From assembly GCA_028290465.1 (NCBI GenBank), contig JAQGJU010000100.1, forward strand, positions 1 to 28,449: 28,449 bases of DNA, in the 5' to 3' direction. A program made the translations under genes and the position numbers. The DNA is from Xanthobacteraceae bacterium. GTDB lineage: Bacteria; Pseudomonadota; Alphaproteobacteria; Rhizobiales; Xanthobacteraceae. This document shows, in pieces, positions 7,904-15,160 of this stretch; the stretch's first letter is position 1, and every line of letters starts with the position of its first letter. The notes under the pieces are model-generated. The model had not been told where the DNA came from, made no database searches, and was given only the letters and a program-made list of their open reading frames with translations.

Positions 7904-8052
7904 GGCAGGACCTCGCGCGGCAATTGCGCTCGTACTGGCATCCGTTCCTGCATGGTGCTGTTAATCTCCCGTGAAGGTCCCATGAATAGCGTAACAGCCC
8001 TGTAGGTACCAGCAGGCCGGACCGTGCGTCCGGGCCTGGTTTGGGTTGTTGC

Positions 8053-8712
8053 ATGAATATCAGTCCCGTCAGCGCGAGTGCGTCCAGCCAGCTATTGCAG
8101 CGGGTGTTCAAGCAGGCTGACAGCGACGCCAGCGGCGGCATATCGAGCGCCGAACTGACCTCGGCGAGCGGTTCCGGCGCCTCATCGACCGATGTGACGG
8201 CCCTCTTCAAAAGCGCGGACAGCAGCAGCGACGGCCGGATTTCCGCCCCGGAACTCAAGTCGGCATTCGACAATATGTCGACCGAAATGCAGAGCGCCCT
8301 GATCAGCGCGCAGGAATCTGCCACGTCCGCAGCCGATACCCTGAAAGCCCTCGCCGAGAGCACGGCCGCCAATGCCGGCATGGCCGGCATGGTGAGCAAC
8401 GGAACGCCGGTTCAAGGCGAACCTCCTGCCCAAGGCGCGCCTCCGGCCCGCCCGGCGGGCGGCGGCGGCGGCGGTGGTGGTGGCAAGACGGAAGAGGCCG
8501 ATCCGGCCGACGCTAACGGCGACGGCGTCGTCACCGCGTCGGAGCAGGCCGCCTATGACAGCAGCCAAGGTGCGGGATCGACAACCAGCACGTCGACTAC
8601 CACCAGTGCCACCGACCAGGCCGACGCTACCGACAGCGCCAAGTCCGCAACAGCCGCTTTGGCAACAAAAGCACTGGCGACAAAAACCGCTTATGCGAGC
8701 CTGACGGCCTGA
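8053..8712 (+). CDS. Acidic low-complexity protein with three EF-hand Ca-binding loops
   Basis: Three canonical 12-residue EF-hand loops are present: DSDASGGISSAE, DSSSDGRISAPE and DANGDGVVTASE. The rest is S/A/T/G-rich, with a Gly9 tract encoded by (GGC)4(GGT)3GGC. The track start at 8041 is TTG, so the first ATG at 8053 is used. There is no N-terminal signal peptide. Confidence 0.6.
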   Translation: MNISPVSASASSQLLQRVFKQADSDASGGISSAELTSASGSGASSTDVTALFKSADSSSDGRISAPELKSAFDNMSTEMQSALISAQESATSAADTLKALAESTAANAGMAGMVSNGTPVQGEPPAQGAPPARPAGGGGGGGGGKTEEADPADANGDGVVTASEQAAYDSSQGAGSTTSTSTTTSATDQADATDSAKSATAALATKALATKTAYASLTA

Positions 8713-9005
8713 TCGGGGTCGCGTTGCCGTCTTGGTTGGCGATTCATCGCGAAATAAAACGCGGTGCATCATCATCACGACGGATATTTTCGTGCGCGGT
8801 TGGTGCGCGGCACTCATATTTAATTGCTTTTTCGCACACGGGCCGTTTGGCCTCTTGCGCTCAAGTTCCGTTTGCATCATAAGCCGCGTCCTTCGCGAGG
8901 CCATGTGTCCGGGCTCGATGAGACCCGGCTGGCGCGGGCCGCTCTGCGGCTTCGTGTTCCGCCAAACGGAGACGATCATGCTTATGCCAAGCATACGATC
9001 ACACT

Positions 9006-9081
9006 GCGAGGATAGCTCAGTGGTAGAGCAGATGACTTGTAATCATCGTGACGCGGGTTCGAATCCCGTTCCAACGCTCCG
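9006..9081 (+). tRNA. tRNA-Thr(UGU)-like gene with aberrant acceptor stem (possible pseudogene)
   Basis: The hand fold gives D-arm GCTC-AGTGGTA-GAGC, anticodon arm GATGA-CTTGTAA-TCATC (anticodon TGT) and T-arm GCGGG-TTCGAAT-CCCGT. However, the 5' acceptor GCGAGGA faces a 3' strand TCCAACGC. That gives six Watson-Crick pairs plus an A-A mismatch and a one-nucleotide bulge. I confirmed the bases through the overlapping track ORF translation (..NPVPTLRF..). Confidence 0.6.
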
Positions 9082-9401
9082 GTTCAGCCTGAAAAGCTGA
9101 CTCCCATTGCAGGGGACCGGACGCGCGCTTCAGTCGCGGTCCGGCCGACTTGCCGCAAGGCTCTTCGCTCGTACCAACACACTGTGAGACCGGCTCTGCG
9201 CCGGGGCGGATACCGCCTGCGCGGACGTCAGGCTCGCCGTTCGGCCGCGCGCTTCGGCGTGCGATCGCACGCGTGCGCCTGCCGTCCCGCGAGCTAAAGC
9301 CCTAGCCCGTCCGTCTGACAGGAAGCCGTGTCCGGTCACCCATCCTCGATCTGAAGCACGCTGTCCGCAATCCCGCGGCCGGCCAACGATGGAGATGTGT
9401 C

Positions 9402-10553
9402 ATGACCCGGCACCTGTTGATGCTGCGCGTGACGGTGAAGGACGGCCAGCGCGCCCTCCTGACGCGCAACGGACAGTTCGAGCGTGTGCTCGAGCCGGGC
9501 CGGCACCGTCTGTTCGACCCGGCGCATGCGCGTGCGGTCGAGGTGTACGACGTCGTCCGTGCCGAATTCCCGGCCGAGCGTCACGCCGTGCTGATGACGG
9601 CGAAGCCGCAGCTCGCGGCCGAGCTGTTCGAGGTGGTCGAGACGAAGGCGGATGAACTCGCCATCGTCAGCCTCGACGGCCGTCCGACGCATCTGATGGC
9701 GCCGTGGCAGAAGCGCGTGTTCTGGAAGGTCGCGACCCGTGTCGATGTCGAGCGCATCGATGTGGCGGTCGACCCGAAGGTGTCCGCGCGCCATCTGACG
9801 ATGATCGTGCGCGAGCGCAACACGCTCGCGGCCGAGCATGTTGTTGAGAACCACGAGGCCGGTCTGCTCTTCGTCGAGGGCCGTCTGGTCGAGCGGTTGG
9901 CGCCGGGCCGGCATGCGTTCTGGACGGTCGGCCGCAAGATCGAGGTCAAGCGCCTCGACCTGCGTCCTCAGGCGCTCGAGATCACGGCGCAGGAGATGCT
10001 GACCAAGGACCGCATCGCGCTGCGGGTGACGCTCACCGCGTTTCGCCGGATCGTCGATCCGGAGCGGGTGGTGAGCACGGTGCCGGACGTGGATGCTTGG
10101 CTGTACCGGTTGGTGCAGTTCGCGATCCGCGAGGCGGTCGCCGGCCGTACGCTCGACGAGGTGCTGGCGGCCCGCAACGTGCTCGACGCGGAGCTTCGCG
10201 CCTATGTGCGCGAGCGCATCGCGGAGACCGGCCTCGAGGTGACGGAGCTCGGCGTAAAGGATGTGATCCTGCCCGGCGAAATCCGCGAGCTCGTGAACAA
10301 GGTGGTGGAGGCGGAGCGGACGGCGAAGGCCAACCTGATCCGCCGCCAGGAAGAGACCGCGGCGACGCGTTCGCTTCTGAACACCGCCAAGCTGATGGAG
10401 GACAACCCGCTTCTCCTGCGGCTGAAGGAGCTCGAGTCGATCGAGCGGATGGTCGAGAAGGTCGGCCGCATCGATCTCCACGCCGGGGACGGCGCGGGCC
10501 TCGATGCGCTACTGACCGGCCTGGTGCGCGTCAAGGCGCCCCAGGCGGGCTGA
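9402..10553 (+). CDS. SPFH/band-7 (slipin-like) domain protein lacking an N-terminal TM helix
   Basis: An SPFH core (EITAQEMLTKDRIALRVTLTAFRRIVDPERVV...) is followed by a coiled-coil C-terminus (AERTAKANLIRRQEETAATRSLLNTAKLMEDNP). The motif G-x-F-E-R-V/L-L-E/A-P-G-R-H occurs at aa ~24-36 and again at ~160-172. A GGAG RBS is present. The 381-aa minus-strand ORF here is a shadow. Confidence 0.8.
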   Translation: MTRHLLMLRVTVKDGQRALLTRNGQFERVLEPGRHRLFDPAHARAVEVYDVVRAEFPAERHAVLMTAKPQLAAELFEVVETKADELAIVSLDGRPTHLMAPWQKRVFWKVATRVDVERIDVAVDPKVSARHLTMIVRERNTLAAEHVVENHEAGLLFVEGRLVERLAPGRHAFWTVGRKIEVKRLDLRPQALEITAQEMLTKDRIALRVTLTAFRRIVDPERVVSTVPDVDAWLYRLVQFAIREAVAGRTLDEVLAARNVLDAELRAYVRERIAETGLEVTELGVKDVILPGEIRELVNKVVEAERTAKANLIRRQEETAATRSLLNTAKLMEDNPLLLRLKELESIERMVEKVGRIDLHAGDGAGLDALLTGLVRVKAPQAG

Positions 10554-11040: not shown

Positions 11041-13192
<2,152 letters not shown>

Positions 13193-13314
13193 GGAATCCT
13201 CCATAGTTTTCGGCGCAATGGTTGTTCGATGGGGCGAGGCGCCGGCTATATGCCGCGCACCGCTTGCCGGCACATAAGCCGGACCGTTTAGGCCACAAGG
13301 GGGCCGGCGCTGAT

Positions 13315-13340
13315 TTAGCACTCCTCGTCGCGAGTGCCAA
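13315..13340. promoter_or_regulatory. Degenerate CIRCE (HrcA operator)-like inverted repeat upstream of groES
   Basis: The minus-strand reading is TTGGCACTC-N8-GAGTGCTAA, against the consensus TTAGCACTC-N9-GAGTGCTAA. The left half has one mismatch and the spacer is 8 nt rather than 9, confirmed through the codons of an overlapping track ORF. It lies about 125 bp upstream of the groES ATG. Confidence 0.45.
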
Positions 13341-13676
13341 CAACGATTTTGCGGGCGCCGGTTTGGGACCGGCCTGGGCTACGCGAATGGGAGGATAAGC
13401 TCTTGTTTGCGCGTGATCTTTAGCAAATACAACGGCACAATTTTGGTGATCGTCGTTAACGGCGGTTCCATCCCAAACGGTCAAAAAATCGTGGTTCCGG
13501 TTCGCGGAACTTGGCGAGGCTGAGCCTCGTTTGCAAGGCATCCAGTACCGTACCCTAGTAGCAGCCCTTACGGGATGCTGCTAATGCCTTGAAATACAAC
13601 ACTTTCTTCATTTTTTGGGCTTGCAATGCCTACAGGTGTCCTCGGACGCTTGTCCGACAGAATGGAGGGCTTGGTT

Positions 13677-13946
13677 ATGGTGTCAGAAGACTTCCGCAAG
13701 CAGGTCGCAGGTTACGGCCTCACCACCGCGCACATCTATTACCGGCGCCCCGATCACCCCTGGCTGCTGCAAAGCTACGTCTGGCAGAATTACGATCTCT
13801 GCCCGAAATTCCCCGAACTGCAGCGCTTCCTGGAGTTCTGGAAGAGCAAGCTCGAGGGGCCGCTACACTCGGTGATGGTCGCGCACTCCAAGCTGATCAA
13901 GCCCGCCGAACTCAAGTCGCTCGACGGCGAATTCTACCTGAACTGA
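13677..13946 (+). CDS. usg: Usg-family protein
   Basis: MVSEDFRKQVAGYGLTTAHIYYRRPDHPWLLQSYVWQNYDLCPKFPELQRFLEFWKSKLEGPLHSVMVAHSKLIKPAELKSLDGEFYLN matches the alphaproteobacterial Usg family (PF06233-like) over its full ~90 aa. GGAGGG sits 8 nt upstream of ATG 13677. Confidence 0.8.
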   Translation: MVSEDFRKQVAGYGLTTAHIYYRRPDHPWLLQSYVWQNYDLCPKFPELQRFLEFWKSKLEGPLHSVMVAHSKLIKPAELKSLDGEFYLN

Positions 13947-13999
13947 GCGATGCCAGTCGTCGGAGAGTGCGCCGCCGCTCTGACCCGCTTTGTTCTCAG

Positions 14000-14086
14000 T
14001 CATGGCCGGGCTCGTCCCGGCCATCCACGTCTTGCTTATGGTCAGATCATGAAGACGTGGATGCCCGGCACAAGGCCGGGCATGAC
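14000..14086. repeat. REP/MITE-like palindromic repeat, family B (two inverted ~35-nt units GTCATGSCCGG...CATCCACGTCTT)
   Basis: GTCATGGCCGGGCTCGTCCCGGCCATCCACGTCTTG and, after a 17-nt spacer, AAGACGTGGATGCCCGGCACAAGGCCGGGCATGAC. Its translation (KTWMPGTRPGMT) is the typical spurious ORF of this repeat family. It sits between usg and the Bug/TctC gene. Confidence 0.6.
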
Positions 14087-14188
14087 GAACTTTGGCGAAC
14101 GCGCTGGTCGCGCCTGGACACATTCGGGCGGCGCGGCCATCCTCCCGACAACGCCGCGTCCACAAAAGCGGCGACCGGGAGGATGACG

Positions 14189-15160
14189 ATGCGAATTCAC
14201 ACCGCTCTTACGGCAGCGATCGGCTTCACGCTGGCGTTCGGGCCGGCGAATTCAAACGCTCAAGATAAATTCCCCTCGCATCCGATTGTGCTGTCGCATG
14301 GCTTCGGCGCCGGCGGCAATTCCGATACCGTCGCCCGGATCATCGCGCCGGTGCTGAGCGAGCGCCTCGGCCAGCAGGTGCTGGTCGAACCGCGCGTCGG
14401 CATGGGCGGTAATCTGGCAACCGACAAAACCGTCAAGGCGACGCCGGACGGCCACACGCTGGTGGTGCTGACCGGCGGCCACGCGGTGTCGGGCGCGCTG
14501 TACAAGACGCTGCCGTTCCATCCGGTCGACGATTTGCAGATGATCTCGACGCTGATCTATTTTCCGTTCGTGATTTCGGTGCGCAAGGATCATCCGTTTC
14601 AGAACCTCGGCGATCTGATCGCCGCCGCCAAGGCCAAGCCGAAGGCCATTACCTATTCGTCGGTCGGCATCGGCTCGACCCAGCACCTTGCGGGCGAGTT
14701 GCTGCAGTCCATGGCCGGCATCGAACTGGTGCATGTACCATATCGCGGCGGCATGGCGCCGGTCACCGATCTGCTGGGCGGGCGTATCGACGTGATGATC
14801 GACACGCTGACCGTCACCTCGCCGCAGATCGCGTCCGGCGGCGTGCGCGGCCTCGCGGTGACGAGTCCGAAGGAGTGGCCGAGCCTGCCGGGCATTCCGG
14901 CGGCGGCCGCCACCGTGCCGGACTACGATGTGCGCTCCTGGATGGGCGTCGCCACCACCAAAGGCGTGCCGGCCGACGTGCTGGCGCGGCTCAACGCGGA
15001 AATCCGCTACGCATTGGCGCAGCCGGTCGCTAAGGATCGGCTGGAGCAGATCGGCAACGAGGTCCGGGCCTCGACGCCCGACGAGATGCGCGCCCATGTG
15101 GCGGCGGAAGTCGCCAAATGGCAGAAGGTGGTGGCCGACGCCAACGTGCCGCAGCAGTAA
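14189..15160 (+). CDS. Bug-family (TctC-like) tripartite tricarboxylate transporter substrate-binding protein
   Basis: The product begins MRIHTALTAAIGFTLAFGPANSNAQDKFPSHPIVLSHGFGAGGNSDTVARIIAPVLSERLGQQV... and then shows the Bug-family fold pattern. I preferred ATG 14189 (GGGAGG 7 nt upstream) over 14183. The 600 nt of the track ORF upstream of that start is non-coding and repeat-derived. No tctA or tctB is adjacent, so this is an orphan Bug gene. Confidence 0.85.
   Translation: MRIHTALTAAIGFTLAFGPANSNAQDKFPSHPIVLSHGFGAGGNSDTVARIIAPVLSERLGQQVLVEPRVGMGGNLATDKTVKATPDGHTLVVLTGGHAVSGALYKTLPFHPVDDLQMISTLIYFPFVISVRKDHPFQNLGDLIAAAKAKPKAITYSSVGIGSTQHLAGELLQSMAGIELVHVPYRGGMAPVTDLLGGRIDVMIDTLTVTSPQIASGGVRGLAVTSPKEWPSLPGIPAAAATVPDYDVRSWMGVATTKGVPADVLARLNAEIRYALAQPVAKDRLEQIGNEVRASTPDEMRAHVAAEVAKWQKVVADANVPQQ

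Follow-up and report, generated by a model that had tools for sequence, protein, structure and literature searches.

Does an apparent tRNA gene whose acceptor strands fail to pair record a decaying tRNA, the passage of a mobile element, or a structure retained for some use outside translation? This question is posed by a tRNA-Thr(UGU)-like sequence in a 28,449-nt contig from a Xanthobacteraceae bacterium (JAQGJU010000100.1; hereafter, the window, meaning the whole of this stretch). The original prediction offered three readings of the sequence: a tRNA pseudogene, an integration or excision scar at a tRNA 3′ end, and a tRNA-like structural element, of which only the last survives the analysis presented here. 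In our assessment, the "broken tRNA-Thr" is probably a non-decoding, tRNA-shaped module within the ~450-nt leader of a soluble slipin gene, where it likely serves as a handle recognized by protein.

A tRNA-like element with an incomplete acceptor stem

The locus comprises the tRNA-like element and two flanking open reading frames (ORFs):

8041-8712: EF-hand ORF, acidic and of low complexity, with a single strong EF-hand match; directly upstream of the leader described below
9006-9077, + strand: tRNA-like module 2 (b7a-tRNA type), a cloverleaf scoring 86.9 bits against the family covariance model
9402-10553, + strand: Band-7/SPFH slipin ORF, 383 aa; Pfam Band_7, 5.9e-33

The bases at 9006-9081 (GCGAGGA TA GCTC AGTGGTA GAGC A GATGA CTTGTAA TCATC GTGAC GCGGG TTCGAAT CCCGT TCC AA CGC TCCG) bear out the canonical arms and the anticodon TGT originally read there. 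The D stem is formed by 9015-9018/9026-9029, the anticodon stem by 9031-9035/9043-9047, enclosing the loop CUUGUAA with the triplet UGU at 9038-9040, and the T stem by 9053-9057/9065-9069 with a G-U closing pair; all three arms are canonical. The acceptor defect is equally genuine. The 5′ strand GCGAGGA faces a 3′ strand reading UCCAACGC, so that two 3-bp helices (GGA/UCC and GCG/CGC) form on either side of an A that faces AA. CCA is absent 3′ of the acceptor, and UCCG is found there instead.

ARAGORN, which had been suggested as a check on the pseudogene reading, called 0 tRNA and 0 tmRNA genes across the whole 28-kb window. The Rfam tRNA model RF00005 matches 9010-9072 with 54.8 bits (E=2e-9), far above chance; the match is local, spanning model positions 5-66 of 71, and therefore excludes the outer acceptor. 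No Rfam family other than tRNA matched, either at gathering thresholds or at E≤10 across 8700-9420. Rfam having returned tRNA only, we ruled out tmRNA, Y RNA-like RNAs, Bradyrhizobium sRNA families, and riboswitches; for tmRNA, the absence of any ARAGORN gene in the window adds to the sole Rfam match being tRNA.

The element accompanies slipin genes

We searched one genome per species from 185,579 species with a DNA pattern describing the tRNA-like body, in which the triplet and the variable loop were left free. This pattern occurs in 43 places, which belong to Bradyrhizobium, Xanthobacteraceae, Pseudolabrys, Methylopila, Hyphomicrobiales metagenome-assembled genomes (MAGs), and one gammaproteobacterium, Dokdonella. 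At each of the 42 places that could be assessed, the core is followed on its own strand by a slipin homologue that starts 376-434 nt further downstream. The 43rd (L037) was left out because its stored stretch stops before any gene could appear, and at one of the 42 (L041) the slipin match covers part of the gene only. The Dokdonella slipin next to the tRNA-like element is only 36% identical. Among the 42 pattern matches with checkable context, we found no ordinary tRNA gene with this body located away from a slipin gene.

The reverse search used the slipin protein alone. It fetched 80 metagenomic loci, 63 of them with at least 560 nt of upstream sequence, and the tRNA-like element is present in 61 of these 63. 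In relatives fetched through slipin, the intergenic region 5′ of the gene carries this tRNA-like element too, its acceptor just as incomplete; the Rfam tRNA match in their elements covers positions 5-66 only, or 1-71 with mismatches in L008. Two near-identical metagenomic contigs, L078 and L104, retain the leader domains A and B described below and an intact slipin gene, and have lost both of the tRNA-like modules found in other leaders (L078:1140-1260 and L104:706-826), indicating that the module is dispensable in at least one lineage. At a separate locus, five tRNA-like model matches cluster upstream of the leader (L115:1-675, - strand); these probably represent normal tRNA genes that have nothing to do with the element.

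Selection maintains the tRNA fold

A covariance model was built from 23 diverse members, and 70 elements, fetched via the slipin protein together with Dokdonella L012, which came from the DNA pattern, were aligned. Pairing was counted over 69 distinct sequences:

D stem: 100% of cells paired; invariant
Anticodon stem: 99.4% paired; 4 of 5 pairs changed on both sides
T stem: 99.7% paired; 2 of 5 pairs changed on both sides
Inner acceptor GGA/UCC: 99.5% paired; nearly invariant
Outer acceptor (three pairs): 46.9% paired; not maintained

The pseudogene first proposed for this locus is contradicted by stems that are 99-100% paired over these sequences, with compensatory double changes in 6 of the 10 pairs of the anticodon and T stems. 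None of 500 shuffles reached the observed pairing values, and slid registers drop to 31-52% paired. The tRNA elbow, formed by GG of the D loop and UUCGAAU of the T loop, is essentially fixed across the family.

The anticodon loop is far from fixed. Sixty-six unique sequences contain 22 different triplets and 38 different loop 7-mers; some loops are 6 nt long, and position 33 is not always U. Close orthologues carry UGU, GUU, AUG, UUU, GCU, and others, and the variable loop and the 5′ flank have about the same entropy as positions 34-36. Because the triplet is free among orthologues, "Thr(UGU)" is an accident of the window lineage, and the tRNA-Thr(UGU) label initially attached to the locus is incidental. 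The "broken acceptor" is a family trait, since orthologues conserve its incompleteness: relatives carry the same non-canonical arrangement of GGA/UCC plus the trailer A(A/G)CGCUCCG, an outcome of the orthologue comparison that counts against a pseudogene. This 3′ trailer (9073-9081 in the window) is conserved even where no 5′ strand is able to pair with it, and it survives in L078 and L104 despite the loss of both tRNA-like modules. The 3′ end of domain A, the CGCUUCAG loop, and the Shine-Dalgarno sequence were inspected by eye as partners for the trailer, and no covariation was seen.

Judged from the alignment, then, what selection preserves is the set of L-shape determinants: the T loop UUCGAAU, the D stem and its GG-containing loop, and the stems of the anticodon and T arms. 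The features on which charging and decoding of a genuine tRNA depend, namely an anticodon that does not vary and an acceptor of 7 bp with CCA, have been released from selection.

The module belongs to a covarying leader

Conservation extends well beyond the tRNA-like element, running from just 3′ of a promoter-like motif to ~9335. The parts of this region and the slipin translation signal are:

8854-8883, + strand: promoter-like motif, -35 CTTGCG at 8854-8859 and -10 CATAAG at 8878-8883
8890-8972, + strand: leader domain A, a closing helix CCUUCG/CGGAG around two hairpins
8974-9000, + strand: module 1, in the window a plain hairpin, GAUCAUGCUU..AAGCAU..GAUC
9078-9335, + strand: leader domain B, a hairpin UCAGCC..GCUGA at 9084-9100 plus a multi-helix rod
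9391-9394, + strand: Shine-Dalgarno GGAG of slipin, read from the sequence and conserved in the alignment

A CTTGC-N17/18-CTATTAG/CATAAG motif stands directly 5′ of the conserved block in relatives too, as seen in their sequences and in the alignment. A strict consensus promoter scanner made no call at 8854-8883 or elsewhere, so the promoter is a putative one, proposed solely from the conserved motif; transcription would start at ~8889-8891, where conservation begins. No terminator-like site was found between the tRNA-like element and the slipin Shine-Dalgarno, the sole matches lying inside or upstream of domain A. The conserved RNA is most likely, in the window lineage, the 5′ leader of the slipin mRNA. 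The minimum free energy of the 512-nt leader lies below that of shuffles (z=-3.08).

Domain A, whose hairpins are GUCCGGGCUC..CCCGGC and GGCGCGGGCCGC..GCGGC..CGUGUUCCGCC, was detected with an nhmmer profile in 63 of 63 protein-anchored loci with enough upstream sequence. Canonical pairing in its RNAalifold helices runs at 91-98%, and double changes affect 12 pairs. Domain B is likewise present in 63/63 protein-anchored loci, with numerous compensatory changes in its alifold helices. A long-range helix between ~9116-9131 and 9321-9335 (CCGGACGCGCGCUUC / GGAAGCCGUGUCCGG) closes the rod, and one of its pairs turns from A-U to G-C in eight sequences. Three related segments of this domain, CCGGACGCG, CGCGGUCCGG, and CGUGUCCGG (9116-9145, 9321-9335), can form either a local hairpin or the long-range helix and could be a mutually exclusive structural switch. 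Domains A and B, ~340 nt of conserved, covarying non-coding sequence, match nothing in Rfam, and in combination with the tRNA-like modules they have the look of a large structured RNA or leader that has yet to be described.

Module 1 is the most changeable part of the leader. In most Bradyrhizobium loci it is a second tRNA-like structure with a full acceptor and a shrunken anticodon loop, and it fits the full tRNA model (1-71) in both Bradyrhizobium and Xanthomonadales; ARAGORN labels the Bradyrhizobium version tRNA-Phe or "tRNA-???." The hairpin in the window takes the place of this first tRNA-like of most relatives and aligns with its D arm; L008, L015, L016, L023, and L052 also have a hairpin here, and L081 has nothing. 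Outer GCG/CGC pairs occur in module 2 of 20/30 loci without a tRNA-like module 1 compared with 4/40 loci with one, an association confounded by phylogeny. One long acceptor-like stem per leader may be preferred.

In Xanthomonadales, the leader parts follow the same order as in alphaproteobacteria. The upstream domain gives a weak match to domain A at the right place (E=0.018), the downstream domain is closed by GGAAACGCCCC/GGGGCGUUUCC, and no sequence homology between alpha- and gammaproteobacterial domain B was found. The equivalence of the flanking domains across the two classes consequently rests on the order of parts and on visual comparison.

The adjoining gene encodes a soluble SPFH protein in a conserved neighborhood

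The two genes first described as flanking the element, one for an acidic EF-hand protein (8041-8712) and one for an SPFH protein free of transmembrane segments (9402-10553), were confirmed. Homologues of the latter carry the name "slipin family protein," and its identity to those from Bradyrhizobium and related MAGs is 83-86%. With a Kyte-Doolittle 19-residue mean of at most 0.9, the slipin shows no transmembrane segment. An AF2 model (pLDDT 71, pTM 0.40) places an N-terminal beta-rich region before the SPFH domain and a long C-terminal helix. Foldseek searches with this model returned the stomatin, HflK/C, prohibitin, erlin, and flotillin cages, as well as major vault protein (MVP) over ~480 columns (E about 1e-9). 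At the level of fold, and given a model of moderate confidence, the slipin is compatible with a soluble oligomeric scaffold.

The gene order slipin-groEL-groES-usg is syntenic in Bradyrhizobium and related MAGs, and the window contains no direct or inverted repeat of the tRNA 3′ part. These two results leave the earlier suggestion of an accessory region unsupported and speak against an integration or excision scar. The EF-hand gene is not kept in relatives, which have GIY-YIG, DUF488, MFS, or DUF72 genes at that position. In one MAG, the slipin gene is followed not by groESL but by Uma2, cyclase, and 1135-aa TIR-domain genes, a defense-like neighborhood (L009:5220-9152).

Two further sequence features were observed downstream of the slipin gene. 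The first lies upstream of groES (12875-13321, - strand):

13314-13339, - strand: CIRCE-like inverted repeat TTGGCACTC-N8-GAGTGCTAA, seen by eye

A CIRCE search with the canonical 9-nt spacer gave no match, the visible variant having an 8-nt spacer; the repeat suggests that this groESL copy may be under HrcA control. The second is a 35-nt inverted repeat at 13999-14086 (86% complementary, 18-nt spacer) inside ORF 13589-15160. Since the TctC-domain match of this ORF starts only at residue 248, the repeat may be intergenic, and it may be a REP-like palindromic element.

RtcB linkage in relatives and membership in the b7a-tRNA class

A tRNA-like RNA encoded beside Band-7 genes has been predicted before. 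The passage of Wang et al. 2018 (bioRxiv 10.1101/312249) that deals with it, citing Burroughs & Aravind 2016, states that b7a-tRNA "strongly resembles an authentic tRNA" and is found beside a Band-7 protein and RtcB. According to the same passage (bioRxiv 10.1101/312249), b7a-tRNA occasionally swaps places with YrlA/Rsr in RtcB operons, is associated with RtcB "in certain bacteria," which makes the association typical rather than obligatory, and was "not validated experimentally." We found no later experimental work on b7a-tRNA in the literature searched, and no Rfam family exists for it. The 2016 abstract of Burroughs and Aravind reportedly puts forward two candidate cofactors that would scaffold RNA-repair systems, SPFH/Band-7 modules and "a novel tRNA-like molecule."

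The element in the window is a member of this known, purely predicted class. It folds into a cloverleaf with D, anticodon, and T arms, and it ends at 9077, with the Band-7/SPFH ORF starting at 9402 on the same strand. The remaining hallmark, linkage to the RNA ligase RtcB or an RNA-repair operon, is found in relatives and not in the window: tblastn detected no RtcB in the 28 kb, and nothing else there is recognizable as RNA repair. The repair link is therefore borrowed from relatives. In Luteimonas and related loci (L053-L055), tandem tRNA-like modules are followed by slipin and then immediately by RtcB, and L056 has the tRNA-like modules and slipin without RtcB. In these Xanthomonadales loci, which were fetched through the slipin protein, the first of the tandem modules matches tRNA model positions 1-71 and the second 4-67. 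In several Bradyrhizobium loci (L010, L019, L020 [38-1357], and L045), RtcB is encoded on the strand of the leader, ~3 kb upstream of it, and a Tlde1-domain gene sits between the two. At another locus, RtcB is found ~1 kb downstream of slipin (L026:6657-7646).

Our element thus shares with b7a-tRNA a tRNA-like, non-coding nature and a place next to a Band-7/SPFH gene, and in relatives it lies directly beside RtcB. It differs in that the window lacks RtcB, that it is one module of a ~450-nt covarying leader with domains A and B, and that its upstream sister module has shrunk to a hairpin in the window. The tandem modules, truncated acceptor, free triplet, deletion variants, and ~450-nt leader are additions of the present analysis, and may or may not appear in the 2016 paper.

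Comparison with other tRNA-like RNAs

One point of reference is YrlA, a Y RNA that mimics tRNA and whose gene accompanies those of Rsr/Ro60 and RtcB (Chen et al. 2014; Wang et al. 2018). Both RNAs have an L-shape like that of tRNA, conserve the D and T arms, lack a free CCA end, are non-decoding, and are linked to RtcB. YrlA, however, resembles a circularly permuted tRNA: its acceptor is a closed stem-loop, and its "anticodon stem" is made by the two ends of the RNA and runs on into the Ro-binding stem. The window element instead follows the normal 5′-acceptor-D-anticodon-T-acceptor-3′ order with a closed 7-nt anticodon loop, and its partner gene is Band-7 rather than Rsr, with EF-hand and Band_7 genes as neighbors. 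We rejected a YrlA or Y RNA identity on the basis of this standard arm order and of the lack of any other Rfam match in 8700-9420 at E≤10.

Like the mascRNA of MALAT1 and operon-embedded tRNAs, the element is a tRNA-like structure inside what would be a longer transcript, and the degenerate anticodon loop of module 1 in relatives resembles that of mascRNA. The anticodon arm of module 2, in contrast, is fully conserved, and most members lack the outer acceptor that RNase P needs to recognize its substrate. The vault particle (MVP plus vault RNA) similarly pairs an SPFH-fold, cage-type protein with a small structured RNA, a resemblance that holds at the level of fold only and comes from the moderate-confidence slipin model.

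Possible roles of the tRNA-shaped module

Our favored interpretation is backed here by the selected tRNA fold, the loss of charging and decoding features, the slipin linkage, the structured leader, and the RtcB linkage in relatives. What we infer for this organism is that the RNA is transcribed, how it is processed, which protein acts as its partner, and a connection with RNA repair. The leader RNA would be transcribed from the promoter-like motif at ~8854-8883 and read through, with no terminator intervening, into the slipin gene. Its tRNA shape would be the handle by which a protein partner recognizes the RNA, in cis or after processing. Candidate partners are the cognate slipin oligomer acting as a scaffold, RtcB, RNase P, and tRNA-modification enzymes; such a role would resemble that of Y RNA/YrlA with Ro60/Rsr in RtcB operons.

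A broader reading is possible, and we hold it tentatively. It takes b7a-tRNA to be a domain of a ~450-600-nt modular RNA, conserved from Alpha- to Gammaproteobacteria, that would form a vault-like or Ro/Y-like ribonucleoprotein (RNP) in which an MVP-like slipin shows tRNA-shaped handles to RtcB or tRNA-handling enzymes, or that would act as a cis sensor of tRNA damage. The order of parts in this large RNA may be domain A, tRNA-like 1, tRNA-like 2, and domain B closed by the long-range helix.

It appears unlikely that the modules are a cis signal for processing or stability, that is, RNase P/RNase Z punctuation that sets the 5′ end of the slipin mRNA with no trans RNA and no RNP. MALAT1 mascRNA and the tRNAs of the tufB operon are precedents for tRNA-type processing marks, and the co-orientation of the element with slipin, its fixed distance from the start codon, and the lack of a terminator between them would suit this role. 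So would two further observations: in most leaders, one module or more has an extended acceptor-like stem, and module 2 tends to have GCG/CGC outer pairs where module 1 has been lost, although the latter association (20/30 versus 4/40) is confounded by phylogeny. A processing mark would leave unexplained the conserved, covarying anticodon arm, the ~340 nt of domains A and B, and the swap with Y RNA/Rsr in RtcB operons reported in the b7a-tRNA passage of bioRxiv 10.1101/312249.

We see a slim chance that the tRNA-like module is a decoy or sensor. In such a scheme, anticodon nucleases or RNA-damaging toxins would cut the module, the leader would refold, slipin (and RtcB) would be switched on, and the triplets would track the attackers. 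The hypervariable anticodon loop on conserved stems fits this proposal, as do the RtcB linkage in relatives and the repeated CCGGAC / GUCCGG of domain B, which permit alternative pairings as a local hairpin or a long-range helix. However, entropy at positions 34-36 is about that of other unpaired, unconstrained positions, so neutral drift suffices to account for the triplets without diversifying selection, and a loop of 6 nt would make a poor imitation of what a nuclease cuts.

A decaying tRNA-Thr pseudogene, or a scar of mobile element integration or excision at a tRNA 3′ end, would account for the broken acceptor, the missing CCA and ARAGORN call, and upstream neighbors that vary by lineage, yet is highly improbable: it is refuted by conservation and covariation, the architecture being shared by Alpha- and Gammaproteobacteria and always beside slipin, the stems being kept by compensatory changes, and no bona fide tRNA gene with this body occurring away from slipin among the 42 checkable matches. 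Virtually no credence attaches to a functional, chargeable tRNA-Thr(UGU) with an unusual acceptor stem, for which the Rfam score of 54.8 bits and the ARAGORN call of tRNA-Thr(tgt) on the L008 orthologue could be cited, against a triplet that varies among close orthologues, some 6-nt loops, an outer acceptor unpaired in most members, and the lack of a conserved CCA or usable discriminator context. A canonical elongator tRNA-Thr was rejected outright, there being no 7-bp acceptor with CCA, no conserved anticodon, and a variable U33.

Implications

Understood as a non-decoding module of a slipin leader, the element bears on genome annotation. ARAGORN calls leader modules of relatives tRNA-Phe(gaa), tRNA-Thr(tgt), and "tRNA-???" (L002:3523-3593, L008:3487-3560, and L009:3525-3593, respectively), and such elements are thus likely mis-annotated as tRNA genes in public genomes. 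Calling them tRNA-Thr, tRNA-Phe, or pseudo-tRNA miscounts tRNA sets and wrongly suggests islands.

The finding also bears on b7a-tRNA, which is predicted to act alongside SPFH proteins in RNA repair. Its Bradyrhizobium/Xanthobacteraceae version comes with culturable, genetically tractable hosts and a unit that would run from promoter, as proposed from the conserved motif, to gene, along with natural variants in which module 1 is lost, both modules are lost, or the acceptor is extended. Together, these make it testable what binds the tRNA shape and whether a cytoplasmic SPFH cage is an RNP.
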